A stretch of DNA of 32,211 bases from a virus (Duplodnaviria; Heunggongvirae; Uroviricota; Caudoviricetes). The stretch spans positions 327,353 through 359,563 of the IMG/VR virus record IMGVR_UViG_3300042549_004104; one strand, given 5' to 3'. The notes beneath the pieces are model-generated. The model did no database searches. It was not told the origin of the DNA and saw nothing but the letters and a program-made list of their open reading frames with translations. Shown piece by piece: positions 19,710-32,211 of this stretch; position 1 is the stretch's first letter; every line of letters starts with the position of its first letter. Made by a program: the position numbers and the translations under genes.

Positions 19710-20312
19710 TTACATTGCAGGTCCGTTGCCTTGCTTAAATCCTACTTCCCCGCCCTCGTCTTTGATGCGTTTCATTACATCTTCAAACAAGATAGGACGA
19801 AAGTCTGTTTGTTCTACGCATACGCAATGATATCTTGGATCAATTTCATCACTGTACAACATAGTACCGGTCTTAACGTCATACCCTCGAGGCTTCTTAA
19901 CACGATTACTGTGCAAATGACCATGAATGTTGACTCCAAAACGTCCCAAACTTTCTTCATGTACAGGGATATGACTCAATATCATACCGTTCATAACATG
20001 ATAAGCTCGCAATTCACGAAAGTGTTCACGATATTCCTCGTCACGGAAAATGTCATGATTGCCACGAATCAATACCTTATCCCCATTCAAACGATGTAAG
20101 GTCTTCAATGCTTTACGATTGATAACTACATCACCTAAGTGATATACTTTATCAGAAGGCTTGACAGTTTCGTTCCATGCTTTAACCATAGCCTCATCCA
20201 TTTCATCTGGATCAGTCCAGGGGCGCAATTTTGTTACGCCATCGTCACGGGTGAACTTACAGACACCCATGTGTCCGAAATGTGTGTCACTTACTAAAAA
20301 TACTGATGGCAT
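19710..20312 (-). CDS. Calcineurin-like metallophosphoesterase
   Basis: SDTHFGH, HLGDV, RGNHD, SHIP and HGHLH motifs. Confidence 0.9.
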   Translation of the reverse strand: MPSVFLVSDTHFGHMGVCKFTRDDGVTKLRPWTDPDEMDEAMVKAWNETVKPSDKVYHLGDVVINRKALKTLHRLNGDKVLIRGNHDIFRDEEYREHFRELRAYHVMNGMILSHIPVHEESLGRFGVNIHGHLHSNRVKKPRGYDVKTGTMLYSDEIDPRYHCVCVEQTDFRPILFEDVMKRIKDEGGEVGFKQGNGPAM

Positions 20313-20783: not shown

Positions 20784-21095
20784 TTACGCTACAAACCAAC
20801 CATCATCTTCATCTTTGTATTCTATTGATTCGTTACCATCGTAATCATCAATTCTAAACAGTCTACCTTCTTTGATCCATAAAACTTCTAAGTCACGCAT
20901 CCCACCCAAATATATGCTAGGATATTTTAGTGTCATAAAAGTTTCTAATTCATCAAACCGATTTTCTATCACCATGTTAACGATAGCTGGATCAAATAAG
21001 ATTTCAGGATACTCAGTATTCCAAGTATACCATCCAGCACCAAAACCAGGGCTATACAACACTGCTACCTTACCATCAACTACTAATTTTTCCAT
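20784..21095 (-). CDS. Conserved-looking phage hypothetical protein
   Basis: VAVLYSPGFGAGW...YDGNESI pattern. Confidence 0.75.
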   Translation of the reverse strand: MEKLVVDGKVAVLYSPGFGAGWYTWNTEYPEILFDPAIVNMVIENRFDELETFMTLKYPSIYLGGMRDLEVLWIKEGRLFRIDDYDGNESIEYKDEDDGWFVA

Positions 21096-21562
21096 TATAA
21101 ATCATTCTTAAAGTTACGCCAATCATCAATGTTTGGCTTTTCATTCTCATCATATGTCCAACCCAATGCCTTCATCATACGATGCTTGACTAGCAGGTTA
21201 GGGCTACGAAATCTTCCAGTATCTTGAAAGCCCATCATCACGCCTAATTCACATACTGCACCACTGCGACATATACCTGCAAAACAATGAACCACAACAT
21301 TCATTCTGTTTTCTAGTGCATGTTGTAATAGTCTTACCAACTCATTGGCTTGCTCCTGACTACAACGCATAGATTCATCTAAACACTTGTCATTTTTTTC
21401 AATGTCTAAGAATTCAAAGTTATGAATTTCCTTAAACTTGTGTGCAGGTGTTGGTCTCCAACTTGCTGGATCAGCAATACTTATCAACATACTGTTCTCA
21501 CCAGCATCATGATGGAACTTGATTGGCATGTCACTAGCGGCTACATTTTCTATCCAAGGCAT
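21095..21562 (-). CDS. Cys-based (CX5R) protein-tyrosine/dual-specificity-type phosphatase
   Basis: VVHCFAGICRSGA P-loop. Confidence 0.82.
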   Translation of the reverse strand: MPWIENVAASDMPIKFHHDAGENSMLISIADPASWRPTPAHKFKEIHNFEFLDIEKNDKCLDESMRCSQEQANELVRLLQHALENRMNVVVHCFAGICRSGAVCELGVMMGFQDTGRFRSPNLLVKHRMMKALGWTYDENEKPNIDDWRNFKNDL

Positions 21563-21707: not shown

Positions 21708-21788
21708 TATATAAGCACACAATATCTCTTTCGCTTAGTAGAGCCTGTCTTATCGGGCAGGGTACTGATATGGTATACTTATATAAAC
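21705..21788 (-). ncRNA. Candidate structured RNA B (16-bp closing stem)
   Basis: Minus strand GTTTATATAAGTATAC pairs with GTGTGCTTATATAAAC using two G-U pairs; inner stems. Confidence 0.5.
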
Positions 21789-21807
21789 AGATGCCCTCAG
21801 GCATCTG
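21788..21807 (-). terminator. 8-bp hairpin after the TROVE-like gene (terminator or processing signal)
   Basis: cagatgcc-ctca-ggcatctg, followed on the minus strand by TTTAT. Confidence 0.55.
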
Positions 21808-21824: not shown

Positions 21825-23252
21825 TTACGCTAAATCGTAACGATCCTTCATAACGGTCTTCAACATGATTGCTTCTGGTGAGAAGTCATCCAAGTTACCA
21901 GACAGAATGCTTTGAGCAATTGCTGGGCTAAATCCTGAGACTAGCGCAACTCCACTCTTGTCAAACTTAACTGGACTGTTACCGTATGCGGCGTTCAAGT
22001 TCCAGAACACAACCTTTGGGATTGTGTAACCAGCACCTTCGTACTTACGTGCAATCATTTCAATTGCGGAGTCATCGTGAGATACTCCAGCATCAAATTG
22101 CATGTCACTGAAGATAACGATAGTACCTGGCATTTCTGCTTGAGGAACATTGTTATCAACTGCTGTCTTAAGCACCAAATCAAATGCCTTGTTCAAGTCA
22201 GTGTTAGCGACTTCACCAGTGTTCATTTGGTCAATCTTTTGATTGATGTTACCCTGTAGAGTAACCAGCTTTGGAGTACGACTGAAAGTTAGGAACGTGT
22301 CCTTAAACTTACCAGTGTTCTTATCTGCAAAGTACAATCCCAATGAGATTGCAACATTCAAACAACTCAAAGTACTCTTGCTACCATAACCACCTGCACT
22401 ACAAGTCATAGAACCTGAACTATCAACCATTGGCAATACGTTAGCGTCACCGATGAAGTTTGGCAGTGCATCCCATTGGGATTGCATTGCGTCCAATTCA
22501 GTCTTAGTCATTGCACCACGACCGTACTTGTTGATAGCACCCTTCAACACATCGTATGGGAACACTGCGCCTGCGTTAATCTTAGCACCATCTTCGCCCT
22601 TAACTAACTTAGTTACGTATTCAGCATAGGTTGTACCATGACGACCAAATGCCTTCTTGTAACGTGCATGTGCCACTGAAGGAACATGGTTGTAGTTGAT
22701 GTTATCCCAATCGTTACTACACATTTGTGTTTCAACAACATTGGTTAGTGCAACTAGGCTCTTACGATATTGCTTTGGAGTCATTCCAAAGAATTCACGG
22801 ATTTCACGTGCAACATCACCCTTACGAGGAGTCCACTTTGCAGCCAATCCATTACGTGCCCGCAATGCATCGCCTAACATAGTGTATGCTTGTTCCTTAA
22901 GAGTCTTAGTCTTAAAAACTAACAAATCATCGTAACGACCTAATTCTGGAATCTTAACCAATAGACGGCTAGCGTCTTCTGGGTTAGTTAATTCCAAGTG
23001 AATTAGAACTTGACGGAACAATTCACGTTCGCCGGATCCACCACGTGCATCACGTGCCCATTGGACAATACGTAATGCTAGGTCAGAGTTTTCAACATAA
23101 GCCGCAGTGAATGCGGGTATGATGTTCTTGCCACGGCTTGCACCGATGTTATAGAACAAGTCAACGCAAGCATTTGCGGTTGACTTACGTGCCTTCATAC
23201 CGTTAGTGGTACGGGCTTCTTGGTTTGCTACTGCTTCTACAAATGTTGACAT
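21825..23252 (-). CDS. TROVE/Ro60-like RNA-binding protein with C-terminal vWA domain (DUF2828-type)
   Basis: RDARGGSGERELFR, GRYDDLL and AAKWTPR in the helical domain; vWA MIDAS VDSSGSM...ANTD...IFSDMQFD; VFWNL. Confidence 0.8.
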   Translation of the reverse strand: MSTFVEAVANQEARTTNGMKARKSTANACVDLFYNIGASRGKNIIPAFTAAYVENSDLALRIVQWARDARGGSGERELFRQVLIHLELTNPEDASRLLVKIPELGRYDDLLVFKTKTLKEQAYTMLGDALRARNGLAAKWTPRKGDVAREIREFFGMTPKQYRKSLVALTNVVETQMCSNDWDNINYNHVPSVAHARYKKAFGRHGTTYAEYVTKLVKGEDGAKINAGAVFPYDVLKGAINKYGRGAMTKTELDAMQSQWDALPNFIGDANVLPMVDSSGSMTCSAGGYGSKSTLSCLNVAISLGLYFADKNTGKFKDTFLTFSRTPKLVTLQGNINQKIDQMNTGEVANTDLNKAFDLVLKTAVDNNVPQAEMPGTIVIFSDMQFDAGVSHDDSAIEMIARKYEGAGYTIPKVVFWNLNAAYGNSPVKFDKSGVALVSGFSPAIAQSILSGNLDDFSPEAIMLKTVMKDRYDLA

Positions 23253-23283
23253 AGTGTACTCCTTCCTTGTGTGTGTTATGCAA

Positions 23284-23339
23284 CAGGATGCGCTTTGGTT
23301 TCATTTATCGTTGAAATTAAAGTTGCTGAAAGCATCCTA
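23284..23339 (-). ncRNA. CAGCAA closing-stem element 1 (56 nt)
   Basis: TAGGATGC-TTT-CAGCAAC...GCATCCTG; begins at the predicted TSS and ends 31 nt before the TROVE-like ATG. Confidence 0.65.
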
Positions 23340-23346
23340 AAAAAGA

Positions 23347-23375
23347 ATTATATCACTGTTTTGATATAATGTAAA
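23347..23375 (-). promoter_or_regulatory. Sigma70-type promoter for element 1 and the TROVE-like gene
   Basis: TTTACA-17-TATAAT. Confidence 0.75.
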
Positions 23376-23390
23376 TTGATTTTGGGTTAA

Positions 23391-23630
23391 CGGGATGTTC
23401 GTGCTAATTTGTTTATTTTCTGGTCTGGCCAATCATAGCACCCAGACCCTATCAACAATTCATGTTGACTATCTAGTACTTGTGTCTGTCACTAGAAACA
23501 TAGAATGTCTTTCCATTCTGTCAACTATTCCATCATCGCTTAGTTTTCTAAGAACCCAAGAGTGTTGCCACTGTCTTCCGACCAACTTCTGTAGGATTAA
23601 GCTGTAGTTTAAATTGCTGAAATCATCCCA
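23391..23630 (-). ncRNA. CAGCAA closing-stem element 2 (240 nt, multi-hairpin)
   Basis: TGGGATG-ATTT-CAGCAAT...CATCCCG; five consecutive inner hairpins. Confidence 0.65.
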
Positions 23631-23641
23631 TGAAATGATTA

Positions 23642-23808
23642 CAGGATCGTTGTTGACTGCTTTTATTTTACACAGGCCATCACTCTGTGCTTGTTAGTCT
23701 TGCTTCAATAATACCCTTCAACGCTCGGTGTTTTTAAGCACTCTGCTCCAGTTACTACCACAGTGTCTAACAGTCCATAGTTGTTTATGAATTGCTGTAC
23801 CGATCCTA
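23642..23808 (-). ncRNA. CAGCAA closing-stem element 3 (167 nt)
   Basis: TAGGATCG-GTA-CAGCAAT...CGATCCTG; compensatory GC to CG swap relative to element 1. Confidence 0.65.
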
Positions 23809-23831
23809 AAATTTAATCATTCAATACGTGT

Positions 23832-23860
23832 ATTGTATATGATTTTGTGTTTACCGTCAA
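23832..23860 (-). promoter_or_regulatory. Sigma70-type promoter upstream of elements 3 and 2
   Basis: TTGACG-17-TACAAT. Confidence 0.72.
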
Positions 23861-23880
23861 TATATTTTGGGCAAACTGAT

Positions 23881-23956
23881 TGGTGGAGGATACAGGGATC
23901 GAACCTGCGACCTATTGCTTGCAAAGCAACCGCTCTCCCAACTGAGCTAATCCCCC
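23881..23956 (-). tRNA. tRNA-Ala(TGC)
   Basis: Full cloverleaf, anticodon TGC, encoded CCA. Confidence 0.95.
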
Positions 23957-23963
23957 AAATGTA

Positions 23964-24194
23964 TTAATAAAACTTTTTACTCTTAGGCTTCTCATCTTTA
24001 ATACGTTTAAGATATTCACGACCTACCAAACCTTCTTCAATTTCTTTAAGTGCAGTTAACGTAACACCGTGATTAGTTTCTAGTTTAGGACGATGCCCAC
24101 TTTTTAACTCACGTACTCGTTGGCTTGCAATTAAAATCAAGTCATATCTATTTCCTACAGCATTCGCTGCCTTTTCACTACTGATGCGTGGCAT
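23964..24194 (-). CDS. rpoZ: RNA polymerase omega subunit
   Basis: VGNRYDLILIASQRVREL...ALKEIEEG signature. Confidence 0.85.
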   Translation of the reverse strand: MPRISSEKAANAVGNRYDLILIASQRVRELKSGHRPKLETNHGVTLTALKEIEEGLVGREYLKRIKDEKPKSKKFY

Positions 24195-24204
24195 TATTTA
24201 CCTT

Positions 24205-24918
24205 TTAAAAAATTGTATTGTGTGAATTTGTAACTGTGTTATCAACATTATAATAATACAATGCTAGACTTTTACGTGTTACATCATCTGGCGTGTTCAA
24301 TGGATGGGGATGACCATGCCAGGGTTTACCAGTAGTATTAAAAATAACACATCTATTAAATATAGGTGCAATTTTTTGTACACATTGTGTTTTATCGTTA
24401 TTCCATAATTCTAAATGACCACCCCAGTCATCATTCCAATCTTTGTTGAGATAAATTAATAAGTTTAATTTTCTTGCTAACTTAGTACGAGATTCAATAT
24501 TAAAATCCACATGTATACCCAATTTTCCACCTCGTTGTATTTGATGTAGTCCCCCTCCAATTAATCTAGTATCTGCTACTAATCCGGGAACACTAGTCAA
24601 TACTTCTAACCAATCTAAAATATATCCAGAATTTAATTCTTGTAATACATTTCTTGCAATTTGCGGAATTTGCACTTCATTCTTAGAACCAAGTTTAATC
24701 TCATTGTTGTTATTAAACGTCCACCATTCCATACCACCCGGCTTAGGAAAATCTTCTAATATAGAATCAAGTATTTCAGGGGGCAAAAAATTGTCAATTA
24801 CAATATGCGGGAAAGGATCGTTATCATTATATTCTTGTTTAGCATTATTCATCCATTCCTTAGAAAAATACTTGTCTATAAAATATTCTCTAAAGTCAAC
24901 TAAATTATATTCTTCCAT
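24205..24918 (-). CDS. 2OG-Fe(II) oxygenase (prolyl-hydroxylase-like)
   Basis: PFPHIVIDNFL, GGGLHQ, HVDFN (HxD), WHGH, RKSLALYYY. Confidence 0.85.
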   Translation of the reverse strand: MEEYNLVDFREYFIDKYFSKEWMNNAKQEYNDNDPFPHIVIDNFLPPEILDSILEDFPKPGGMEWWTFNNNNEIKLGSKNEVQIPQIARNVLQELNSGYILDWLEVLTSVPGLVADTRLIGGGLHQIQRGGKLGIHVDFNIESRTKLARKLNLLIYLNKDWNDDWGGHLELWNNDKTQCVQKIAPIFNRCVIFNTTGKPWHGHPHPLNTPDDVTRKSLALYYYNVDNTVTNSHNTIF

Positions 24919-25506
24919 TTAACTTGTTCTTTCTAAGATAGTTAAACCATTATTATGAGTAAAACGTTCTTTCAAAGACCAATTTTTATTTTCTTGTAAA
25001 AATTCTTCTACTGCGGGCCATAAGCCTCGCATACGCATTACTTCCATGTTACCGTTAGCTGGATTAATCATTAATGTAGAACCACTCTCACCTAACTCAC
25101 CAAACGTAGTTGTATCATGTAGTATGATATATTTTCTAGCTTTATTGCTGTGTAGTTTGAATTCTACTTTTAATTGGTCGTATACATGCCAGGTATCAAT
25201 AAACAATAAATCAGTTTCTTCAATGTTTAAGTCTGGTTTAGAAGTATCTGCTTGAATAAATTCAAAATCAATACCTGCTTGTTCTGCTAATTCACTTGCA
25301 AGTTGTATTGGACAAGGTTGAATGTCAATACTAACTAAACGTTTTGGTTTAGATTCCAAGAACGCCCATGTACTTACTACAGTTCTTACACCCATTTCTG
25401 TAATATGCTCACATTCGCTTGCATATTTTTTAATTGTTTCTAGGTGTTCGTTGATGTCACTTGGGCTTTTTACTCTTACTTGAAATTGTTCTGATATTGT
25501 TGTCAT
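24919..25506 (-). CDS. Class I SAM-dependent methyltransferase-like protein
   Basis: EMGVR..VST, SIDI, DLLFIDTWH, IILHDT and NNGLTIL motifs. Confidence 0.75.
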   Translation of the reverse strand: MTTISEQFQVRVKSPSDINEHLETIKKYASECEHITEMGVRTVVSTWAFLESKPKRLVSIDIQPCPIQLASELAEQAGIDFEFIQADTSKPDLNIEETDLLFIDTWHVYDQLKVEFKLHSNKARKYIILHDTTTFGELGESGSTLMINPANGNMEVMRMRGLWPAVEEFLQENKNWSLKERFTHNNGLTILERTS

Positions 25507-25525
25507 AATTTAATTTTAAAAAATT

Positions 25526-25599
25526 TGGAGCGGGTAGCGAGAATCGAACTCGCAAATAATCCTTGGCAAGGATTCAGGTTACCTTTACATCATACCCGC
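25526..25599 (-). tRNA. tRNA-Gly(GCC)
   Basis: Cloverleaf, anticodon GCC, CCA. Confidence 0.92.
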
Positions 25600-25605
25600 T
25601 TATTC

Positions 25606-25680
25606 TGGTACCTGAACACGGTTTCGAACCGCGGACCCTCTCCGTGTAAAGGAGACGCTCTACCCCTGAGCTATCCAGGC
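25606..25680 (-). tRNA. tRNA-Val(TAC)
   Basis: Cloverleaf, anticodon TAC, CCA. Confidence 0.94.
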
Positions 25681-25690
25681 AAATATTCAT

Positions 25691-25855
25691 TTAACCACCC
25701 TGTTCAGAGTCTTTAATCTCTGTGTTAATTTCTTCATTTAACTCTTTTTTTTCTTGTACTTCTTCTTTAATGTCACGTTGAAATATAGCATCCCACCGAT
25801 TATCATATTCAGCTTGTGTTACACTAAATGGTCTTGGTCTACTACCTTTACTCAT
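25691..25855 (-). CDS. Hypothetical protein (54 aa, not in ORF track)
   Basis: Hand-translated MSKGSRPRPFSVTQAEYDNRWDAIF...; AGGA SD. Confidence 0.65.
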   Translation of the reverse strand: MSKGSRPRPFSVTQAEYDNRWDAIFQRDIKEEVQEKKELNEEINTEIKDSEQGG

Positions 25856-25874
25856 AACTTATTCCTAAAAATAA

Positions 25875-26006
25875 TTAACGACCTTGTCCGTGATACGCTT
25901 TAAATGTTTTGCGTCGGGCTTTATTCATGCTACTTGTTTTAGCTTTACCACCTTGGCATGTACGCTTACTAACTACATGACCTTTTGTATTACGACCTTG
26001 TGCCAT
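25875..26006 (-). CDS. Small highly basic protein (43 aa, not in ORF track)
   Basis: Hand-translated MAQGRNTKGHVVSKRTCQGGKAKTSSMNKARRKTFKAYHGQGR; TAATG overlap with ppiC. Confidence 0.65.
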   Translation of the reverse strand: MAQGRNTKGHVVSKRTCQGGKAKTSSMNKARRKTFKAYHGQGR

Positions 26007-26278
26007 TATCCTGTCCTTTGAATCAAATGATAACCAAACTGAGTTTGAACGGGTTGACTTAACCCACCTACTTCTAAATCAAAGGTAGCATCTTCGAATG
26101 GCTTAACCATTTGTCCACGACCAAAAGCTCCTAAGTCACCGCCATTGCGACCACTTGGACACTTGCTGTGTTGCTGTGCCAGTGTACTAAAATCTTCACC
26201 ATTGTTTTTAACTTTGATGTATAGATCCATTGCATCACTAAGTGATTCTACTAAAATATGTTTTGCTCTTACTTGCAT
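26006..26278 (-). CDS. ppiC: Parvulin-type peptidyl-prolyl isomerase
   Basis: RAKHILV, FSTLAQQHSKCPS, GGDLGAFGRGQMVKPFE, QTQFGYHLI. Confidence 0.93.
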   Translation of the reverse strand: MQVRAKHILVESLSDAMDLYIKVKNNGEDFSTLAQQHSKCPSGRNGGDLGAFGRGQMVKPFEDATFDLEVGGLSQPVQTQFGYHLIQRTG

Positions 26279-26296
26279 TATTTTCCTTTAAATTTT

Positions 26297-26373
26297 TGGT
26301 CGGAGTACAAGGATTCGAACCTTGGACCCCCTGGTCCCAAACCAGGTGCGCTACCAGACTGCGCTACACTCCG
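26297..26373 (-). tRNA. tRNA-Pro(TGG)
   Basis: Cloverleaf, anticodon TGG, CCA. Confidence 0.95.
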
Positions 26374-26612
26374 ATATTTCTCTTCCTTAAAATCATTCCG
26401 ACATATGTGCCACAAAATGCACCTAAGCCTGCTGGAATAAGTAACCAATAGTTCGTAGTGTAATTTATAACTGCTACACAAGCAGTTACAAATACAACTG
26501 TTGCCCATATACTAGCTTTCATTACTCGGTCATCTTGTATAGCTTTCAAGTAGTAAGTATAACAGATATCAGTAAAAAATACAGCAAAAAAGGTTATAAT
26601 ATATTCTAACAT
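26364..26612 (-). CDS. Small membrane protein
   Basis: Three hydrophobic segments; last 10 nt overlap the tRNA-Pro 5' end. Confidence 0.7.
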   Translation of the reverse strand: MLEYIITFFAVFFTDICYTYYLKAIQDDRVMKASIWATVVFVTACVAVINYTTNYWLLIPAGLGAFCGTYVGMILRKRNIGV

Positions 26613-26621
26613 TTAAATGAT

Positions 26622-26696
26622 TGGTTGCAGGGGACGGAATCGCACCGCCGATCTCTAGCTTATGAGACTAGTGAGATACTACTTCTCCACCCCGCG
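26622..26696 (-). tRNA. tRNA-Met(CAT), initiator-like and atypical
   Basis: C1:A72 mismatch, anticodon CAT; lacks the three consecutive G-C anticodon-stem pairs; T-loop TGCGATT. Confidence 0.8.
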
Positions 26697-26714
26697 ATAT
26701 ATTTATTATGTTCG

Positions 26715-26789
26715 TGGTACTCGCTAAAAGATTTGAACTTTTGACCTCTACTATGTCACAGTAGCGTTCTTCCCCTGAACTAAACGAGT
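26715..26789 (-). tRNA. tRNA-Val(GAC)
   Basis: Cloverleaf, loop GT-GAC-AT, CCA. Confidence 0.85.
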
Positions 26790-26792
26790 TTA

Positions 26793-26963
26793 TTAGGTTT
26801 TGCGAAACTCTACTTTCATTCCCTGAGCAATATTGAATGAATTTAGTAAGCCGGCTTCTTTGTCAAGATTGATTTGCTTAAAGAACAAGGCAGGCTCATA
26901 TTTGTCGCTGTCTACTGTTACCGTTTTGTATAATTTATCGTTGATAAAAATTTTAATTTGCAT
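26793..26963 (-). CDS. Hypothetical protein (start MQIK)
   Basis: 56 aa; late-like GATAAATA at 26972-26979. Confidence 0.6.
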   Translation of the reverse strand: MQIKIFINDKLYKTVTVDSDKYEPALFFKQINLDKEAGLLNSFNIAQGMKVEFRKT

Positions 26964-26982
26964 AGTAACAGTATTTATCATT

Positions 26983-27059
26983 TGGTGCCCAAGGAGAGAC
27001 TCGAACTCTCAAAATACGGCTTCTAAGACCGGCATGTATACCAATTCCATCACCTGGGC
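26983..27059 (-). tRNA. tRNA-Leu(TAG) with short variable loop
   Basis: Anticodon TAG, 77 nt, 5-nt variable region, CCA. Confidence 0.82.
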
Positions 27060-27064
27060 ATATC

Positions 27065-27151
27065 TGGTGCGAGTACCCGGAGTCGAACCGGGATGACCTT
27101 GCGGCCGACAGATTTTAAGTCTGTTGCGTCTACCTATTCCGCCATACTCGC
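27065..27151 (-). tRNA. tRNA-Leu(TAA)
   Basis: Cloverleaf with long variable arm, CCA. Confidence 0.94.
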
Positions 27152-27158
27152 AAAACTT

Positions 27159-27232
27159 TGGAGCGGGGTAAGAGAATCGAACTCTCAGCATTAGCTTGGA
27201 AGGCTAAGGTATTACCACTATACGAACCCCGC
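27159..27232 (-). tRNA. tRNA-Gly(TCC)
   Basis: Cloverleaf, anticodon TCC, CCA. Confidence 0.94.
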
Positions 27233-27244
27233 ATAAATATCTTT

Positions 27245-27409
27245 ATGCACACATACGATGCTATCACTGATTCAGGATTATATATCCATCTGTCAATGAG
27301 TAACGATTCCACTTGTTACATCATAGTGCATAATATTTACTCTCATAAAACTAGAATGAAATTCTTTACTGATACTGAATCAGCAATTTACTTCATCCAT
27401 TCACTATAA
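27245..27409 (+). CDS. Hypothetical protein, counter-oriented (start MHTY)
   Basis: 54 aa; late-like CATAAATA at 27232-27239; ATG inside the hairpin gcataaa-tatc-tttatgc. Confidence 0.55.
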   Translation: MHTYDAITDSGLYIHLSMSNDSTCYIIVHNIYSHKTRMKFFTDTESAIYFIHSL

Positions 27410-27820
27410 CTCAACTTCACACCAATTACTGTCACCCATAAGTTGAACAGCAGTTGTAAATTTATGATGTATACCTAGTGCTGACCAACTGTTAGGATGA
27501 TTCATTGAAACCCAATGAACGTTCTTAATTGTGTCTAAGTATACATAATAAATCTTACCATGTACAGGCTTAAAGGTAATACTGATATTATGCATCATGT
27601 CACTTACTTTCATTCTATTAGCCAGATTTTCAGCCTGACGTTTTAGAACTTCAACTTGTTCCATGATTCTATCATACTCTTGTTGAGCATGAAGTCTACC
27701 AGCATTATATATTATGTCCTTTTCTCTATAAACATCGACAGGGGCAAAAGCAGGACTACCTAACTCCATTGGATAAGGTAAACTGCTACGCTTGTCAGCA
27801 TCTTCTTTTGATAAGTCCAT
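27404..27820 (-). CDS. DUF2452-like protein (start MDLSKE)
   Basis: LPYPMELGSPAF, QEYDRIMEQVEVL..QA, FKPVHGKIYYVY pattern. Confidence 0.65.
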   Translation of the reverse strand: MDLSKEDADKRSSLPYPMELGSPAFAPVDVYREKDIIYNAGRLHAQQEYDRIMEQVEVLKRQAENLANRMKVSDMMHNISITFKPVHGKIYYVYLDTIKNVHWVSMNHPNSWSALGIHHKFTTAVQLMGDSNWCEVEL

Positions 27821-27831
27821 AATATAAAATT

Positions 27832-27908
27832 TGGTGCGCTCAGAGGGACTCGAACCCCCGGCCAAGAAATTATGAGTTTCCTGCTCTAACCAACTGAGCT
27901 ATAAGCGC
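27832..27908 (-). tRNA. tRNA with CAT anticodon, probably Ile2 (lysidine type)
   Basis: Cloverleaf; GAGCAGG..CTCATAA..TTGG resembles Ile2 more than elongator Met. Confidence 0.85.
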
Positions 27909-27919
27909 AACATGATACT

Positions 27920-27948
27920 ATTATATATGAGTTGCTAGTTGTTGTCAA
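27920..27948 (-). promoter_or_regulatory. Sigma70-type promoter
   Basis: TTGACA-17-TATAAT, 11 nt upstream of the tRNA. Confidence 0.85.
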
Positions 27949-28670
27949 CTATTCTGGCTATCTTCTATCTTTTTAAGATAAGTTTTATAGCTATCTAATA
28001 CTACTTTATTAAAATTTTTATTGGGTTTACCATGACTAATTATATGAATTCTAGGTATGTCACTATTATTTGTTACACTATGTATATGACTTAAATTCAT
28101 TAAAAAAGCACTACCTTCATCCTTAAATGGAACTATTCCAACATCTTCCATTTTAAACTCACATCCAATTGGATTATTTAATGATATATTAATTGGTCCT
28201 AGTATACTAAAAGGTATATCATTATGGGGTTGTATGTATCCTTTTGGGTCTAACCACATAAACCTTAATCTTTGATAATCTGTTTGTGGGAAATATTCTT
28301 TAAAATATCTAACAGTTTCAGGGCATCTTTCTATGATTTCAGGAATCCATTTATAGTCAACTTCGGATTCATGCTTGCCTTTATTGTCATCATATTCATT
28401 ATAATTTTCTGTTCTGTGTAATGACTCTCCGTGAATACAAACACTTTTCCAACCTTTATGTCCATAATCTCCTTTATTGGAAATTTCTTTCTCATGTAAC
28501 TCATCTTTATCTCTGTGATGAACAAACAGGTCTTTTACAGCCAATGCTTCATTTAACATAACTTGATATGGACAATCTGGAAGTATTATTTCAAAATAAG
28601 GTAGTTCACTTTTCCAAAGTATCCAATAAACAAATTCTTCATCAGTTAAAGAGTTTTTTCTTGTAATCAT
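27945..28670 (-). CDS. Aspartyl/asparaginyl beta-hydroxylase-family 2OG-Fe(II) oxygenase
   Basis: GWKSVCIHG, RLRFMWLDPKGYIQPHND (HxD), HSVTNNSDIPRIHII. Confidence 0.8.
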   Translation of the reverse strand: MITRKNSLTDEEFVYWILWKSELPYFEIILPDCPYQVMLNEALAVKDLFVHHRDKDELHEKEISNKGDYGHKGWKSVCIHGESLHRTENYNEYDDNKGKHESEVDYKWIPEIIERCPETVRYFKEYFPQTDYQRLRFMWLDPKGYIQPHNDIPFSILGPINISLNNPIGCEFKMEDVGIVPFKDEGSAFLMNLSHIHSVTNNSDIPRIHIISHGKPNKNFNKVVLDSYKTYLKKIEDSQNS

Positions 28671-30052
28671 TGTTTTTCCCCTAACAGTAAATTAAATTTA
28701 CCAAATGTATCAAATCCACATATTTGTAAATTATTATTGTTTTTGTATAAACCATCAATAAAAGTGTTATACAATTTTTCAACATTGTCAGGATGATAAT
28801 ACCTTACAGTCATATTGGTATAAAAAATATTACTGATCCATATTAAATTATTTCCATTGTGTTGATTCATAATTTCGTACAACAGAGTAGGATCTTTAAT
28901 AGTGTCACACTGAATAAATTTATGATCTAATTTTTTATATCTATTCCAAAAATCTAACCATTTTGATAAACCACCAAAATGTTCTATTATTTTTTCCCAT
29001 TCATTTTGCCAAAGAACATGATTATTATGAAACCACGTAGGTAAAAACTCATTGTTTATGTTATTCTTGTAGTGCTCTATCACATTTATATAATCAACTC
29101 CATCCCAATTTTCTAAAAGATATTTTTTAAAATTCAAGGAATGTATATTAATATCAAAATATACAAATGTAGTTTGATTATTCCAATTACATTTGTCTAA
29201 TAGAATTAGAGGCATAAATCCTGCCGCTACGCAATATATACTGTCTAGTAGTGTTTCTTTGTTGTAATCTAATTCTAATATATCAGGACAAGTGTTAAAG
29301 ACAAATACATCTTTATCAAAGTTTGATATGTTTGTTTTTTCAATATATTCTCGTTGATTTACTTCAACTGGTAAACCAGTGTCATCCCCATTTAATACTT
29401 TTTCTAGGTCATTGCGTAATTCAGGATAAAGATTACTTATATTATTTCTTATCTCGGAAGAAAAATTTCCTATAATCTTGTTATGTTCTATAAAAGTTTT
29501 AACTAAACCCCATCCATTATGCAATAGACCTGTGTAATTTCTTACACCTTCAGTCCTTTTAATATATTTTGGGGTATAATCACCGTGTGCGTTTTCATTA
29601 CTTCTTACAATGCACGGTAACTCTAATTCTACAACGCTTGCCCCTAAATTAAATTTAGGTTTATTGACTTCAATATAGTCTTTTATATTGATAAGCATAC
29701 ACTGAGTATGTAAATAGTAAAATCCTTTATTTATAGGATAGTCATCTATTATGTGACCAACTATGCTATAATTGTTATTTTTTGCATGTTCTATAATTTT
29801 TGATAATATTTCTGGATCAGTTGCTGTATGTCCGTAATTAATAATATATGCGTAATCAGAGTTTTGTTCTACGGCTTTTTCTAAAATATAATTTATATCA
29901 TTATGGTCAACAAAAAAAATTTCAGTATTGCTATTATTAATTATTTTTGCCCGATCAATATTGTTGTAAAAATTTGTAATCGCTTTAATATGTGTTTGAT
30001 ACTGTAAACTTCTATCTGAAATTTGATTATACAATCCAAATGTTATTTTCAT
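28667..30052 (-). CDS. Hypothetical protein (461 aa, AT-rich; possible transferase)
   Basis: Long ORF coupled to the hydroxylase by an ATGA overlap; no motif recognised with confidence. Confidence 0.7.
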   Translation of the reverse strand: MKITFGLYNQISDRSLQYQTHIKAITNFYNNIDRAKIINNSNTEIFFVDHNDINYILEKAVEQNSDYAYIINYGHTATDPEILSKIIEHAKNNNYSIVGHIIDDYPINKGFYYLHTQCMLINIKDYIEVNKPKFNLGASVVELELPCIVRSNENAHGDYTPKYIKRTEGVRNYTGLLHNGWGLVKTFIEHNKIIGNFSSEIRNNISNLYPELRNDLEKVLNGDDTGLPVEVNQREYIEKTNISNFDKDVFVFNTCPDILELDYNKETLLDSIYCVAAGFMPLILLDKCNWNNQTTFVYFDINIHSLNFKKYLLENWDGVDYINVIEHYKNNINNEFLPTWFHNNHVLWQNEWEKIIEHFGGLSKWLDFWNRYKKLDHKFIQCDTIKDPTLLYEIMNQHNGNNLIWISNIFYTNMTVRYYHPDNVEKLYNTFIDGLYKNNNNLQICGFDTFGKFNLLLGEKQ

Positions 30053-30055
30053 AAT

Positions 30056-30075
30056 ATACCTTTAAGGTATTTATA
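30056..30075 (-). promoter_or_regulatory. Late promoter TATAAATA overlapping an RBS hairpin
   Basis: Perfect TATAAATA (30068-30075); ATACCT-TAA-AGGTAT covers the AGG SD. Confidence 0.65.
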
Positions 30076-30103
30076 GGAAAAATAACATATAGATTTTTTA
30101 TTA

Positions 30104-30195
30104 TGGTACCCCCGGCGAGAATCGAACTCACATGAACCAATTATCTGTTGCTTACGGGATATAAATCCGCCGTTTTACCGTTAAACTACAGGGGC
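30104..30195 (-). tRNA. Atypical tRNA-like RNA, apparent anticodon TAT, 22-nt variable arm
   Basis: Acceptor, D and T arms and CCA intact; A31:C39 mismatch; long extra arm containing AAGCAACAG. Confidence 0.65.
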
Positions 30196-30203
30196 ATATA
30201 AAA

Positions 30204-30260
30204 CAGGATGCTTATTTTTCAATTAAAAGTTGAATTTTTTGAGTTGCTGGACGCATCCTA
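30204..30260 (-). ncRNA. CAGCAA closing-stem element 4 (57 nt)
   Basis: TAGGATGC-GTC-CAGCAAC...GCATCCTG; same stem as element 1, inner TTCAA/TTGAA hairpin. Confidence 0.65.
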
Positions 30261-30265
30261 AAATC

Positions 30266-30273
30266 TATAAATA
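30266..30273 (+). promoter_or_regulatory. T4-type late promoter
   Basis: Perfect TATAAATA, 4 nt before an ATG. Confidence 0.6.
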
Positions 30274-30277
30274 CTAC

Positions 30278-30487
30278 ATGATTCCCTATTCAGCACAACC
30301 TAAAGTTGACGCCTTGTATAAGGCTTTTAGCAACGTGCCATATAGAGAAACTAAGTCACACGTACTTCCAAGTAGTAAATTTGAACTAGATCCATTGTTT
30401 CAAAGTGTGAAACAAGAATTTATTAATGAGTACATTGTAGAAGAAAAGCCCTTCATTCTATCAGGACCTGAATTCAACAATCTTTGA
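30278..30487 (+). CDS. Hypothetical protein, counter-oriented (start MIPY)
   Basis: 69 aa filling the gap between element 4 and tRNA-Trp. Confidence 0.55.
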   Translation: MIPYSAQPKVDALYKAFSNVPYRETKSHVLPSSKFELDPLFQSVKQEFINEYIVEEKPFILSGPEFNNL

Positions 30488-30488
30488 T

Positions 30489-30562
30489 TGGCGTCCCACC
30501 AGGGACTCGAACCCCGACCAACGGTTTTGGAGACCGCTATGCTGCCATTACACCAGCGAGAC
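30489..30562 (-). tRNA. tRNA-Trp(CCA)
   Basis: Cloverleaf, anticodon CCA, 3' CCA. Confidence 0.93.
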
Positions 30563-30571
30563 ATTATTGAA

Positions 30572-30788
30572 TTTGTAAGTAGTTGCCCCATCGTTATAGC
30601 AACCATTCACCCGTGTAATAAAGCCGGCCGGGACTCGGTACGTCACTTGGGATACTAGTCCAGTATAGTCTCCTTTACAGACCCCTGCAGTTCCCCGCAG
30701 GGTGGGAGTTGAACCCATTAACCTTTTACTGCTTTGGTCCTTCGAAGAAACCTAGACAGCGTGACATTCTCTTGCTGACACTTACAAA
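30572..30788 (-). ncRNA. CAGCAA closing-stem element 5 (217 nt) with T-loop-like arm
   Basis: TTTGTAAGT-GT-CAGCAAG...ACTTACAAA 9-bp stem; inner TGGG-TTCAACT-CCCA, GNRA-capped 7-bp hairpin, GTCAC/GTGAC pairing. Confidence 0.6.
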
Positions 30789-30791
30789 ACT

Positions 30792-30867
30792 TGGCGGTCC
30801 TAGGGGGTAACGATCCCCACTCTTACGGCGTGACAGGCATGTGTGCGTCCGTGAACACCTTGAGACC
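30792..30867 (-). tRNA. Degenerate/atypical tRNA-Asp(GTC)
   Basis: Anticodon GTC and CCA present; anticodon stem CATGC/GCCGT has only 2 pairs; T-loop ATCGTTA. Confidence 0.6.
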
Positions 30868-30876
30868 TAAATTAAT

Positions 30877-30927
30877 CAAGAGCTTGTAGACTAAACTACA
30901 ATTTACCGGTTTCTAGACGAACTCTTA
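30877..30927 (-). other. Spacer stem-loop element
   Basis: TAAGAGTT/AGCTCTTG closing stem with inner TGTAG/CTACA hairpin. Confidence 0.35.
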
Positions 30928-30931
30928 AACT

Positions 30932-31018
30932 TGGTGGAGACGACTGGAGTCGAACCAGTAGTGCCTTTCGGGCGGCGGATTTACAGTCCACTGGGGTTAC
31001 CAATTTTCCTACATCTCC
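30932..31018 (-). tRNA. tRNA-Tyr(GTA)
   Basis: Cloverleaf with long variable arm, CCA. Confidence 0.94.
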
Positions 31019-31028
31019 AAAATCTTTT

Positions 31029-31114
31029 TACCATATAGAAACACACTGGCTGTTGCTTGTCATTGTCTTTAACTACCTCTCGGTGGCGGTAGACCAGTAT
31101 GTTTTTATATGGTA
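31029..31114 (-). ncRNA. 21-bp stem element that pairs with the tRNA-Lys 3' end
   Basis: TACCATATAAAAACATACTGG / CCAGTGTGTTTCTATATGGTA (1 mismatch, 1 G-U); inner CTACC/GGTAG hairpin. Confidence 0.5.
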
Positions 31115-31183
31115 GGGGCACAGAGAATCGAACTCTGATTGACCGGTTAAAAGCCGGATATTCTACCTTTGAATTATACCCCC
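31110..31183 (-). tRNA. tRNA-Lys(TTT)
   Basis: Cloverleaf, anticodon TTT, CCA. Confidence 0.92.
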
Positions 31184-31186
31184 ATA

Positions 31187-31261
31187 TGGTCCCTCCACTC
31201 AGATTTGAACTGAGACTTCTCGGATTAAGAGTCCGGTATGCTACCGTAACATCTTGAAGGG
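31187..31261 (-). tRNA. tRNA-Lys(CTT)
   Basis: Cloverleaf, anticodon CTT, CCA. Confidence 0.9.
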
Positions 31262-31267
31262 ATGGAT

Positions 31268-31357
31268 CGTAAATATTTTCTTTTACGTGCCATCCAGGAC
31301 CATACGGGGGTCTAGGATGACACTATCGTTTCATTGAACGTTTCATGTCATTTCCTT
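31268..31357 (-). promoter_or_regulatory. Mini-ORF MKRSMKR* (31323-31346) with SD and downstream hairpins
   Basis: AAGGA-6nt-ATG; stop abuts the GTGTCATCC/GGATGGCAC hairpin (31287-31323), followed by the CGTAAA/TTTACG hairpin. Confidence 0.45.
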
Positions 31358-31370
31358 TGGTTAAAAAACT

Positions 31371-31448
31371 TGGAGTATCGGGTCAGATTTGAACTGACGG
31401 TTTTTCGGATTTGCAATCCGATGCAATGGGCCGCTCTGCCACCGATAC
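31371..31448 (-). tRNA. tRNA-Cys(GCA)
   Basis: Cloverleaf, anticodon GCA, CCA. Confidence 0.9.
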
Positions 31449-31456
31449 ATAATACT

Positions 31457-31548
31457 TGGCGTTGAGTGTGGGATTTGAACCCACGGCCCATATTACTACA
31501 GGCGACACCTTAGCAGGGTGTTGATTTAAGCCACTCATCCAACTCAAC
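31457..31548 (-). tRNA. tRNA-Ser(GCT)
   Basis: Cloverleaf with long variable arm, CCA. Confidence 0.92.
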
Positions 31549-31555
31549 ATAAATT

Positions 31556-31634
31556 TGGCGCACCGCACGGGATTCGAACCCGTGATCTCCGCCGTGACAG
31601 GGCGGCGCCTTAGGCCAGACTGAGCTAGCGGTGC
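31556..31634 (-). tRNA. tRNA-Asp(GTC)
   Basis: Canonical cloverleaf, CCA. Confidence 0.95.
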
Positions 31635-31639
31635 AATAA

Positions 31640-31714
31640 TGGTACTCGGCAGGGGAATCGAACCCCTCTTACATACGTGAAAGGCATGTGTCCTAACCGA
31701 TAGACGAGCCGAGC
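31640..31714 (-). tRNA. tRNA-Glu(TTC)
   Basis: Cloverleaf, anticodon TTC, CCA. Confidence 0.94.
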
Positions 31715-31715
31715 A

Positions 31716-31958
31716 TACTATATGAAAATACATTAGGGTGTTTAACAGAAATAACAGTTTTGATCCTGCCCTACCGTGCCGTCCACGGACTTGTCTGTTA
31801 ACCACATTACAGCCTGATTTCCCCGTCACGTTCAACTGCATAGCCTAAGCTATCGTTCATACGCTTCTTGTACTACTAGCAGAGCCAACCCGTCAGTTGG
31901 TAATCCTCTCTAATAGATACCTAACGGATCAGGTAACCTAATGCGTTTTCATATAGTA
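31716..31958 (-). ncRNA. Candidate 243-nt multi-branched RNA with 22-nt closing stem
   Basis: TACTATATGAAAACGCATTAGG / CCTAATGTATTTTCATATAGTA; inner TGATCC/GGATCA, CCAAC/GTTGG, ATAGC/GCTAT and CCGTG/CACGG stems. Confidence 0.55.
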
Positions 31959-31993
31959 CCCTGAACTTAACAGGGACTATATGACAATTAATT

Positions 31994-32005
31994 TTTTAAA
32001 GAACA
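31994..32005 (-). promoter_or_regulatory. boxA-like antitermination element
   Basis: TGTTCTTTAAAA versus rrn boxA TGCTCTTTAACA (10/12), in the tRNA-operon leader. Confidence 0.55.
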
Positions 32006-32110
32006 GTTGGCTGAGACCGGCTCATTTAATGTTTCCTGCTTAACTTTTTGCTATTGCTAGCGTGTCTCGCTTTTTGAAACAACCTGTTGATTTCTCAACT
32101 CATTAAATGT

Positions 32111-32139
32111 ATTATACATCTAATCGGATTTGTTGTCAA
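32111..32139 (-). promoter_or_regulatory. Sigma70-type promoter of the tRNA operon
   Basis: TTGACA-17-TATAAT. Confidence 0.88.
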
Positions 32140-32211
32140 ACTATTTGTGTTGTATTTTTACATCACTAACATTTCTTCAACTCACCTATGAATCAATCTC
32201 TCAACTCATTA

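Follow-up and report, generated by a model that had tools for sequence, protein, structure and literature searches.

The locus and its elements

The DNA examined here, referred to as the window, is a stretch of 32,211 nucleotides (positions 327,353 to 359,563 of IMG/VR virus record IMGVR_UViG_3300042549_004104) that forms the final 32 kb of a lake phage genome of 359,563 bp, graded complete by CheckV. It carries a gene for a 475-amino-acid protein with a predicted Ro60 fold, together with five elements, E1 to E5, which are sited beside this gene or in the slots of a tRNA array and which share its strand. Every gene around the Ro60-like locus lies on the minus strand. An earlier note on this DNA had listed the five elements with their closing stems and an outer U-G pair, and had taken them to be RNAs bound by the product of the gene; the positions, the stems and the wobble pair are all confirmed when the minus strand is read again. 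The gene and the elements are the following, in window positions unless stated otherwise:

21825-23252, minus strand: gene for the 475-amino-acid Ro60-fold protein (helical ring plus a vWA domain with a metal-ion-dependent adhesion site, MIDAS), as judged from Pfam, AlphaFold2 (AF2) and Foldseek
23284-23339, minus strand: E3, 56 nt; uAGGAUGC-uuu-CAGCAA...GCAUCCUg
23391-23630, minus strand: E2, 240 nt, with a large payload; GGGAUG-auuu-CAGCAA...CAUCCC
23642-23808, minus strand: E1, 167 nt; uAGGAUCG-gua-CAGCAA...CGAUCCUg
30204-30260, minus strand: E4, 57 nt; uAGGAUGC-guc-CAGCAA...GCAUCCUg; in a slot of the tRNA array, 8 nt before tRNA-Ile(UAU)
30572-30788, minus strand: E5, 217 nt; UUUGUAAGU-gu-CAGCAA...ACUUACAAA; ends 9 nt before tRNA-Trp
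Genome positions 4170-4230 and 4322-4430, minus strand: two further copies between tRNA-Arg, tRNA-Glu and tRNA-Ala, with spacers of 4-11 nt

All elements follow one plan, in which the first and last 6-9 nt form a terminal helix, 2-4 unpaired nucleotides follow its 5' strand, and an invariant, single-stranded CAGCAA comes next; a G follows the 3' strand. The helix and the hexamer are referred to as the handle, and the payload that they enclose can be as small as a 30-nt hairpin or as large as about 200 structured nt. E1, E3 and E4 start with UAGGAU and finish with AUCCUG. In E3, an 8-bp closing helix (P1) is followed by an asymmetric loop with CAGCAA, a second helix (P2, CUUU/AAAG) and a hairpin. 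E5 has a closing stem unlike that of the other elements and a T-arm-like hairpin (GGGUUCAACUCCC), which is the only tRNA-like part among the elements of the window, with none in the payloads of E1-E4. A genome-wide search for GGAU..CAGCAA closed by AUCCYG matches only E1-E4 and the two further copies, and the phage genome holds at least seven handle RNAs (E1-E5 and the two past the window end). A looser genome-wide search for a stem plus CAGCAA returned 110 matches, mostly chance 7-bp stems, and was set aside.

A Ro60-fold protein

In Pfam, the 475-amino-acid protein matches DUF2828 (7.6e-26) and DUF7788 (1e-40). A single-sequence AF2 model of the protein (predicted local distance difference test, pLDDT, 38.6) was discarded for a model built with an alignment of 70 homologs of 40-57% identity, which reached a pLDDT of 92.3 and a predicted template modelling score (pTM) of 0.91. 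The latter model has the architecture of a ring of alpha-helical (HEAT-like) repeats closed by a vWA domain, whose MIDAS residues D277, S279, S281, T351 and D383 (the DxSxS...T...D motif) are invariant in the 70 homologs. When the model is compared with the PDB by Foldseek, the top matches are Xenopus and human Ro60, Deinococcus Rsr and the Ro60 of Thermus phage phiLo, with a probability of 1.0 for 2i91 and 1yvp (Ro60), 2nvo (Rsr), 9l5y (phiLo Ro60) and 9nen. The Ro60 matches reach a query TM-score (TMq) of up to 0.63 across about 440-470 residues, which is nearly the full length, and plain vWA domains rank far below them. The top matches among the Swiss-Prot models of the AFDB are the Ro60 proteins of mouse, human, Xenopus, Caenorhabditis elegans and Deinococcus, together with Tetrahymena p80. 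The modelled fold thus places the protein in a family of Ro60-fold proteins that is separate from TROVE in Pfam. Of the description as Ro60/TROVE-like in the earlier note, the fold is borne out, with the refinement that by sequence Pfam does not assign the protein to TROVE.

The DUF2828/DUF7788 family comprises 5,983 clusters at 50% identity and occurs in 702 phage records, where its members are annotated as "RNA-binding protein" or "Ro-like RNA binding protein"; FelixO1, Listeria, Staphylococcus and Campylobacter phages are among its carriers. A literature search on DUF2828/DUF7788 (PF11443, UCP015417) found nothing on function, and a blastn search of the locus against phage records returned only weak matches, all within the open reading frame (ORF).

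A covarying RNA family

Two covariance models were used for the elements, one (R1) built from relatives of this phage only and one (R2) for which most training sequences came from other phages and none from among the copies in the window. E3 and E4 score 70.7 and 54.4 bits with R1 and, within the window, 54.2 and 50.4 bits with R2, which also finds E1 across its full span (23.1 bits, E=0.007). A weak R2 match at 26914-26972 (minus strand) has no CAGCAA and overlies the beginning of an ORF, and was rejected.

Each of 80 related viral contigs (76-96% protein identity) carries 1-4 elements upstream of the gene. A short element of the E3 type, 53-63 nt in length, is near-universal in these loci at the same place, ending about 30 nt before the ATG and, in nearly all relatives, about 18 nt ahead of the ribosome-binding site. 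Among 49 distinct short elements, P1 is 100% paired in spite of exchanges from G-C to A-U, C-G to G-C and A-U to G-C, P2 shows a switch from C-G to U-A, and CAGCAA is invariant. In relatives, elements of the E2 type close with UUGGAUGA/UCAUCCAG or UAGGAUGG/CCAUCCUG, and those of the E5 type change both sides of the stem (GUAAGC/GCUUAC, GAGAGU/ACUCUC); the E5 relatives were collected by a DNA pattern, and the neighboring gene of E4 and E5 gave only one identical contig. The payload of E1 is itself conserved and structured, with 28 predicted pairs, 13 of which show compensatory changes in an alignment of 18 sequences.

Across 25 diverse elements, all eight P1 pairs are changed on both sides, 93.8% of the cells are paired and CAGCAA is constant, as counted on a model-fitted alignment (A5) that is biased toward the modelled structure; a MAFFT alignment (A3) left ragged 3' ends. 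The covariation score of the 25-sequence alignment is 0.568, compared with 0.167 for shuffles and 0.07-0.12 for slid partners. Compensation of all eight P1 pairs around a fixed hexamer upholds the claim of the earlier note that the stems covary and the CAGCAA does not. P2 is only 60% paired across the 25 elements and is a feature of the local group.

Association with the gene across genomes

The neighborhoods of the gene were examined in ten unrelated phages (33-46% protein identity), and in nearly all of them, stem-plus-CAGCAA elements occur beside the gene and on its strand, with stems that all differ and a hexamer that stays constant:

FelixO1: 3-4 copies among tRNAs
Aeromonas LAh_9: 8 tandem copies
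Enterococcus VRE9_2: 1 copy
Mycobacterium DuncansLeg: 2-3 copies
Campylobacter F341: 2 copies
Bacillus MrDarsey: 5-6 copies
Klebsiella KP2025: several copies
Synechococcus BUCT-ZZ01: at least 1 copy
Vibrio K575: doubtful

R1 matches in the Aeromonas, Mycobacterium, Klebsiella and Synechococcus phages have E-values of 1e-5 to 2e-4. The co-occurrence with DUF2828 genes, on which the earlier note had staked its proposal, is borne out by the covariance-model search: on the whole genomes of five gene-carrying phages (556 kb), R2 gives 20 matches at E<=0.01, several of which lie outside the training set, and 18 of the 20 are no more than 4 kb from the gene and on its strand, as opposed to no match in T4, T5, D29, phiKZ and LP65 (752 kb), which have tRNAs and lack DUF7788.

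The association extends to bacterial loci. In 80 prokaryotic genome and metagenome-assembled genome (MAG) loci, many of which are MAGs and possibly prophages, all 32 R2 matches are on the strand of the gene and 27 of them are within 1 kb. Such elements are also present in cultured Clostridia (Dysosmobacter, Hominicoprocola and Anaerotignum), and CAGCAA elements precede the DUF2828/DUF7788 gene in Dysosmobacter segnis (L144, 3700-11100) and Hominicoprocola fusiformis (L143). The RNAs thus accompany DUF2828/DUF7788 genes both in phages, of at least six bacterial groups, and in loci of bacteria and MAGs.

Transcription signals and expression

The local unit reads (tRNA-Ala)-E1-E2-[promoter]-E3-gene-terminator, and the features that complete it are the following:

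23881-23956, minus strand: tRNA-Ala(UGC), found by ARAGORN and Rfam; the last tRNA ahead of E1
23832-23860, minus strand: sigma70-like promoter ahead of E1, TTGACG-17-TACAAT; 10 of 12 consensus positions, a consensus match only
23347-23375, minus strand: sigma70-like promoter ahead of E3, TTTACA-17-TATAAT with a preceding TG; 11 of 12 consensus positions
21788-21807, minus strand: terminator-like hairpin CAGAUGCC-ugag-GGCAUCUG followed by UUUAUAU, 17 nt past the stop codon; read by eye

The -10 box of the promoter ahead of E3 ends 8 nt before the element, and the same boxes at the same distance are found in most of 44 distinct relatives. Because of this short distance, E3 is read as the first 56 nt of the Ro60-like mRNA. 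The -10 box of the putative E1 promoter ends 24 nt ahead of E1. A consensus terminator scan did not list the hairpin at 21788-21807.

Contigs from four lake-water metatranscriptomes, taken from four separate studies, were mapped on window positions 22900-24000. They stem from relatives that are 88-99% alike, and their summed depths are as follows:

E1: about 1e4-4.5e4
E2: about 2e3-1e4
tRNA-Ala: about 6e3-2.4e4
ORF: 30-430
Spacers: 3-90

E1 and E2 are thus about 100-fold deeper than the ORF and the spacers. Contrasts so sharp and local cannot arise from contaminating DNA, and E1 and E2 therefore behave as stable RNAs at tRNA-like levels; the depths are supportive of discrete E1 and E2 species, short of proof. 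The depth of E3 is that of the mRNA, and one contig spans E2 through E3 into the ORF. For the earlier note, the refinement is that E3, present at mRNA level only, is the 5' leader of the Ro60-like mRNA and not a free-standing gene, while E1 and E2 are abundant in RNA libraries.

Abundant contigs of E1 relatives end in ...TTGCTG followed by the Illumina adapter, at CAGCAA (window 23781-23797, minus strand). As TTGCTG directly abuts the adapter, many cDNAs of E1 relatives stop at the C of CAGCAA, which could be a real 5' end, a stop of reverse transcription at a modified base, or an artefact.

Comparison with known RNA and RNP families

The Ro60/Y-RNA particle, in which Ro60 binds the conserved stem of Y RNAs, is both a human autoantigen and a classic example of an RNA-surveillance system. 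As far as we know, Ro60 has few known RNA partners beyond animals and a handful of bacteria.

Bacterial and mycobacteriophage YrlA and YrlB RNAs that occur with Ro60 (Rsr) have been described (Chen et al., 2014, PMC4201824), and in Thermus phage phiLo, a TROVE-type Ro60 engages the host PNPase and binds Yrl RNAs (Yrl1/Yrl2) whose genes lie upstream of its own (PMC12135203). The system of the window resembles these particles in its protein, which combines a helical-repeat ring with a vWA domain and its MIDAS, and in its RNAs, which are encoded beside the Ro60-like gene and join a stem of the two RNA ends to an adjoining conserved motif and a variable module. As with Ro60 and YrlA, this module is sometimes tRNA-like (in other phages), and RNA-repair genes lie nearby. 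In contrast to Ro60, the protein of the window belongs to DUF2828/DUF7788 instead of TROVE and matches by fold alone. Unlike Y RNAs, which have a bulged helix or CGAA/GNCGAA motifs, the elements present a helix and a single-stranded CAGCAA, and they occur in many copies per genome (seven here, up to about ten elsewhere); many of the phage elements are only 50-65 nt in length without a tRNA-like part, and one copy is an mRNA leader.

Scanned with Rfam at gathering thresholds, the window yields only tRNAs and no named family for the elements, for which the earlier note had named none either, and neither Y_RNA (RF00019) nor YrlA (RF02553) matches window positions 23200-32211 at E<=10. In Klebsiella and Mycobacterium phages, long CAGCAA elements score 27-40 bits with the YrlA model, against a gathering score of 69. 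These sub-threshold matches, driven by a T-arm followed by a D-arm, as in the Klebsiella KP2025 elements, tie the architecture of the handle RNAs to bacterial Y RNAs. The RNA family is found neither in Rfam 15 nor in the literature searched, while the likeness of the protein to Ro60 already shows in phage annotations and one preprint. In a preprint, gp130 of the FelixO1-type phage Bas63, a protein of Ro60-like structure, is reported to counter the ppl defence system; its gene lies directly upstream of a tRNA array, and the authors raise the possibility that Y RNAs are among the annotated tRNAs (bioRxiv 10.1101/2024.10.10.617714). The preprint leaves these candidate Y RNAs undefined. The likeness of gp130 to the protein of the window is drawn by phage type alone, the FelixO1 homolog being 38% identical to the latter.

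A different resemblance emerges at relaxed thresholds, where RF01414, the Class I RNA of Dictyostelium, is the sole non-tRNA Rfam family that matches E3 (22.5 bits) and E4 (27.8 bits), both over the full-length model. Eight elements of Aeromonas, Klebsiella and Synechococcus phages also match it, at 22.6-29.6 bits, and every one of these scores, those of E3 and E4 included, is below the gathering score of 41.5. Class I RNAs are defined by a 5' G, a 6-bp terminal stem, the motif CCUUACAGCAA, a variable rest and a 3' CUGU, at a length of about 60 nt; the 11-nt motif adjoins the 5' strand, and its positions T3, C6, C9, A10 and A11 are invariant (PMC7919456). They measure 42-65 nt, have a DUSE promoter, and none have been found outside Dictyostelia (PMC7919456; Kjellin et al., 2021). 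The phage elements share with them the short stem of the two ends, the few unpaired bases, the CAGCAA and a variable A/U-rich rest, as well as a 3' CUG(U) whose C pairs with the 5' G and, for E3 and E4, a length of about 55-60 nt. E1, E3 and E4 can be read as (UA)GGAU...AUCC-UGU, that is, with the Class I-type 5' G paired to the C of CUGU. The differences are that the linker of E1, E3 and E4, in which a U precedes CAGCAA, is 1 nt shorter, so that alignment to CCUUACAGCAA needs a gap; that the phage stems are two pairs longer (A-U and U-G); and that the elements come from a phage, have sigma70-like promoters and, in the case of E1, E2 and E5, measure 167-240 nt.

The known direct binder of Class I RNA is the RRM protein Rnp1A/CIBP, and the pull-down partners are Rnp1A/CIBP, GuaB, NdkC and DDB_G0281243; for the last of these, only a Class I preprint was found, which calls its function unknown. 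Entries of DUF7788 with eukaryote-type architectures exist among the AFDB clusters. That the handle RNAs and the Class I RNAs form one ancient family, with a DUF2828/DUF7788 Ro60-like protein as the common ligand, is a speculative and rather unlikely proposition, and the resemblance as such may reflect homology or convergence.

Interpretation and alternatives

Taken together, the elements are probably small non-coding RNA genes, plus one mRNA leader, that serve as Y-RNA-like partners of the adjacent Ro60-fold protein. The system is probably an undescribed cousin of the Ro60/Y-RNA particle, because the pairing of gene and RNAs recurs in unrelated phages and bacteria. The handle RNAs would be transcribed with the tRNA operon or from promoters of their own, and the enzymes that mature the neighboring tRNAs would cut them free. 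By analogy with Ro60 on the conserved stem of Y RNAs, the protein ring would then bind the handle, and the payloads, some of which are tRNA-like in other phages, may bring the ring to host enzymes that handle tRNA or other RNA, or to their substrates. In view of phiLo Ro60 (PMC12135203) and Bas63 gp130 (bioRxiv 10.1101/2024.10.10.617714), the most likely role would lie in surveying or repairing RNA, or in countering RNA-attacking host defences. The handle of E3 at the 5' end of the protein's own mRNA could provide feedback control or co-transcriptional loading.

Several observations weigh against this interpretation. TROVE is absent among the Pfam matches of the protein, which are DUF2828 and DUF7788 only, and a profile of its family matches PDB Ro60 chains at E=0.025-0.11, confined to the vWA part. 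The known Ro60-binding motifs of Y RNAs and YrlA are missing from the elements. R2 fails to reach E2 and E5, both of which thus rest on the hand-read handle and the compensatory stem changes in relatives; R1 misses E5 as well, which makes E5 the least certain member of the family. Serratia phage BF has no element within 2.5 kb of its gene, the control set consists of five phages only, and the metatranscriptome contigs, being those of relatives, cannot give strand, RNA ends or exact levels.

The first of three competing explanations takes the elements to be structural or processing modules of phage tRNA operons, such as spacer hairpins that guide RNase P, RNase Z or RNase E, or stable by-products, so that the link to the gene would reflect only its usual place beside tRNA arrays. 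Indeed, E4, E5 and the two extra copies fill tRNA-like slots 4-11 nt from the flanking tRNAs, the closing helix of 7-8 bp with its unpaired G recalls an acceptor stem, and the gene adjoins tRNA arrays in FelixO1, Klebsiella, Enterococcus, Campylobacter and Bacillus phages. However, the five tRNA-rich phages without the gene have no elements, the eight tandem copies of Aeromonas LAh_9 lie directly upstream of the gene where there are few tRNAs, and the copies of the Mycobacterium phage lie directly downstream of the gene with no adjacent tRNA. Furthermore, a processing signal leaves the invariant single-stranded hexamer and the position of E3 at the 5' end of the gene's mRNA unexplained, and this explanation is considered unlikely.

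It is also quite unlikely that the handle is mainly a cis-regulatory operator, by which E3, bound by the protein or another factor, controls translation while the other copies act as titrating decoys. The position of E3 fits such a role, with a conserved promoter at its start and, in nearly all relatives, about 18 nt between its end and the ribosome-binding site, and its contig depth is mRNA-like, unlike that of E1 and E2. Most copies, however, are far from any start codon, large payloads are conserved and covary, and an accumulation about 100-fold over the mRNA fits RNAs with a role of their own rather than decoy operators. This explanation overlaps with that of Y-RNA-like partners, since binding of the handle by the protein would still be required. 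The idea that the elements are DNA-level repeats, that is, miniature mobile elements or recombination sites with terminal inverted repeats, accommodates their multiple copies, inverted-repeat ends and variable inserts, but is very improbable in the face of a conserved outer U-G wobble that pairs only in RNA, the single-strand orientation (32 of 32 in prokaryotic loci), the lack of a transposase and of visible target duplications, stems that diverge by compensatory change around a fixed internal hexamer, and a high, sharply local depth in RNA libraries.

Neighboring genes and further observations

Just downstream of the Ro60-like gene, a gene for a dual-specificity phosphatase (DSP)-like protein (21095-21562, minus strand) and one for a calcineurin-like phosphoesterase (Metallophos; 19710-20312, minus strand) encode possible RNA end-healing enzymes. 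In Serratia phage BF, an RNA ligase gene adjoins the Ro60-like gene. In the two gut Clostridia (L144 and L143), the DUF2828/DUF7788 gene is followed by genes for an aminotransferase, an RNA-ligase-like protein (below the Pfam cut-off) and an AAA_33/HD kinase-phosphatase, and with its ligase-like and kinase-phosphatase members, this set looks like a cellular RNA-repair cassette. The genes nearby in Serratia phage BF, Dysosmobacter and the window thus point to RNA-end chemistry.

The tRNA array of the window comprises 19 tRNA genes between 23881 and 31714 (ARAGORN and Rfam). A further 15 are found in the first 4.6 kb of the record and would extend this array if the genome is circular or permuted. 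With its 92 nt and long extra arm, the tRNA-Ile(UAU) at 30104-30195 (minus strand) is an unusual isoleucine tRNA. Two oxygenase-type genes, interspersed with the tRNA genes at 24205-24918 and 27945-28670 (both minus strand), encode a 2OG-Fe(II) oxygenase and an Asp/Asn beta-hydroxylase-like protein, which could be modifiers of RNA or protein. A 76-amino-acid ORF at 23964-24194 (minus strand) matches RNA polymerase Rpb6/omega (PF01192, E=1.7e-11), a gene that is uncommon in phages.

Between tRNA-Tyr and E5, an unannotated stretch (30789-30931, minus strand) has a T-arm-like hairpin (GGGGAUCGUUACCCC) near its end, then a 3' strand resembling that of an acceptor stem and an encoded CCA, which directly adjoins the handle of E5; relatives keep CCACCA at the spot preceding this handle. 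ARAGORN calls no tRNA in this stretch and Rfam gives only a 15-bit match to permuted tmRNA; it may be a tRNA-like or tmRNA-like RNA.

Significance

With DUF2828/DUF7788, the Ro60 fold gains a much larger family, and one that comes with an easily recognized handle and swappable payloads. The handle offers a direct target for binding tests and mutagenesis, and hundreds of phage regions now regarded as "intergenic" or as "odd tRNA" would become annotatable. The resemblance to Class I RNAs can be put to the test, and it offers a way into an RNA class of which the function has been an open question since 2004. If the common ancestry were true, it would add a third branch of Ro60/Y-RNA particles across viruses, bacteria and eukaryotes and would supply a candidate protein partner, perhaps DDB_G0281243, for the orphan Class I RNAs. 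Some of the phages that carry the family belong to groups used for therapy or biocontrol, and the pairing of RNA and protein may account for how tRNA metabolism is protected or exploited by phages in the face of host defences.

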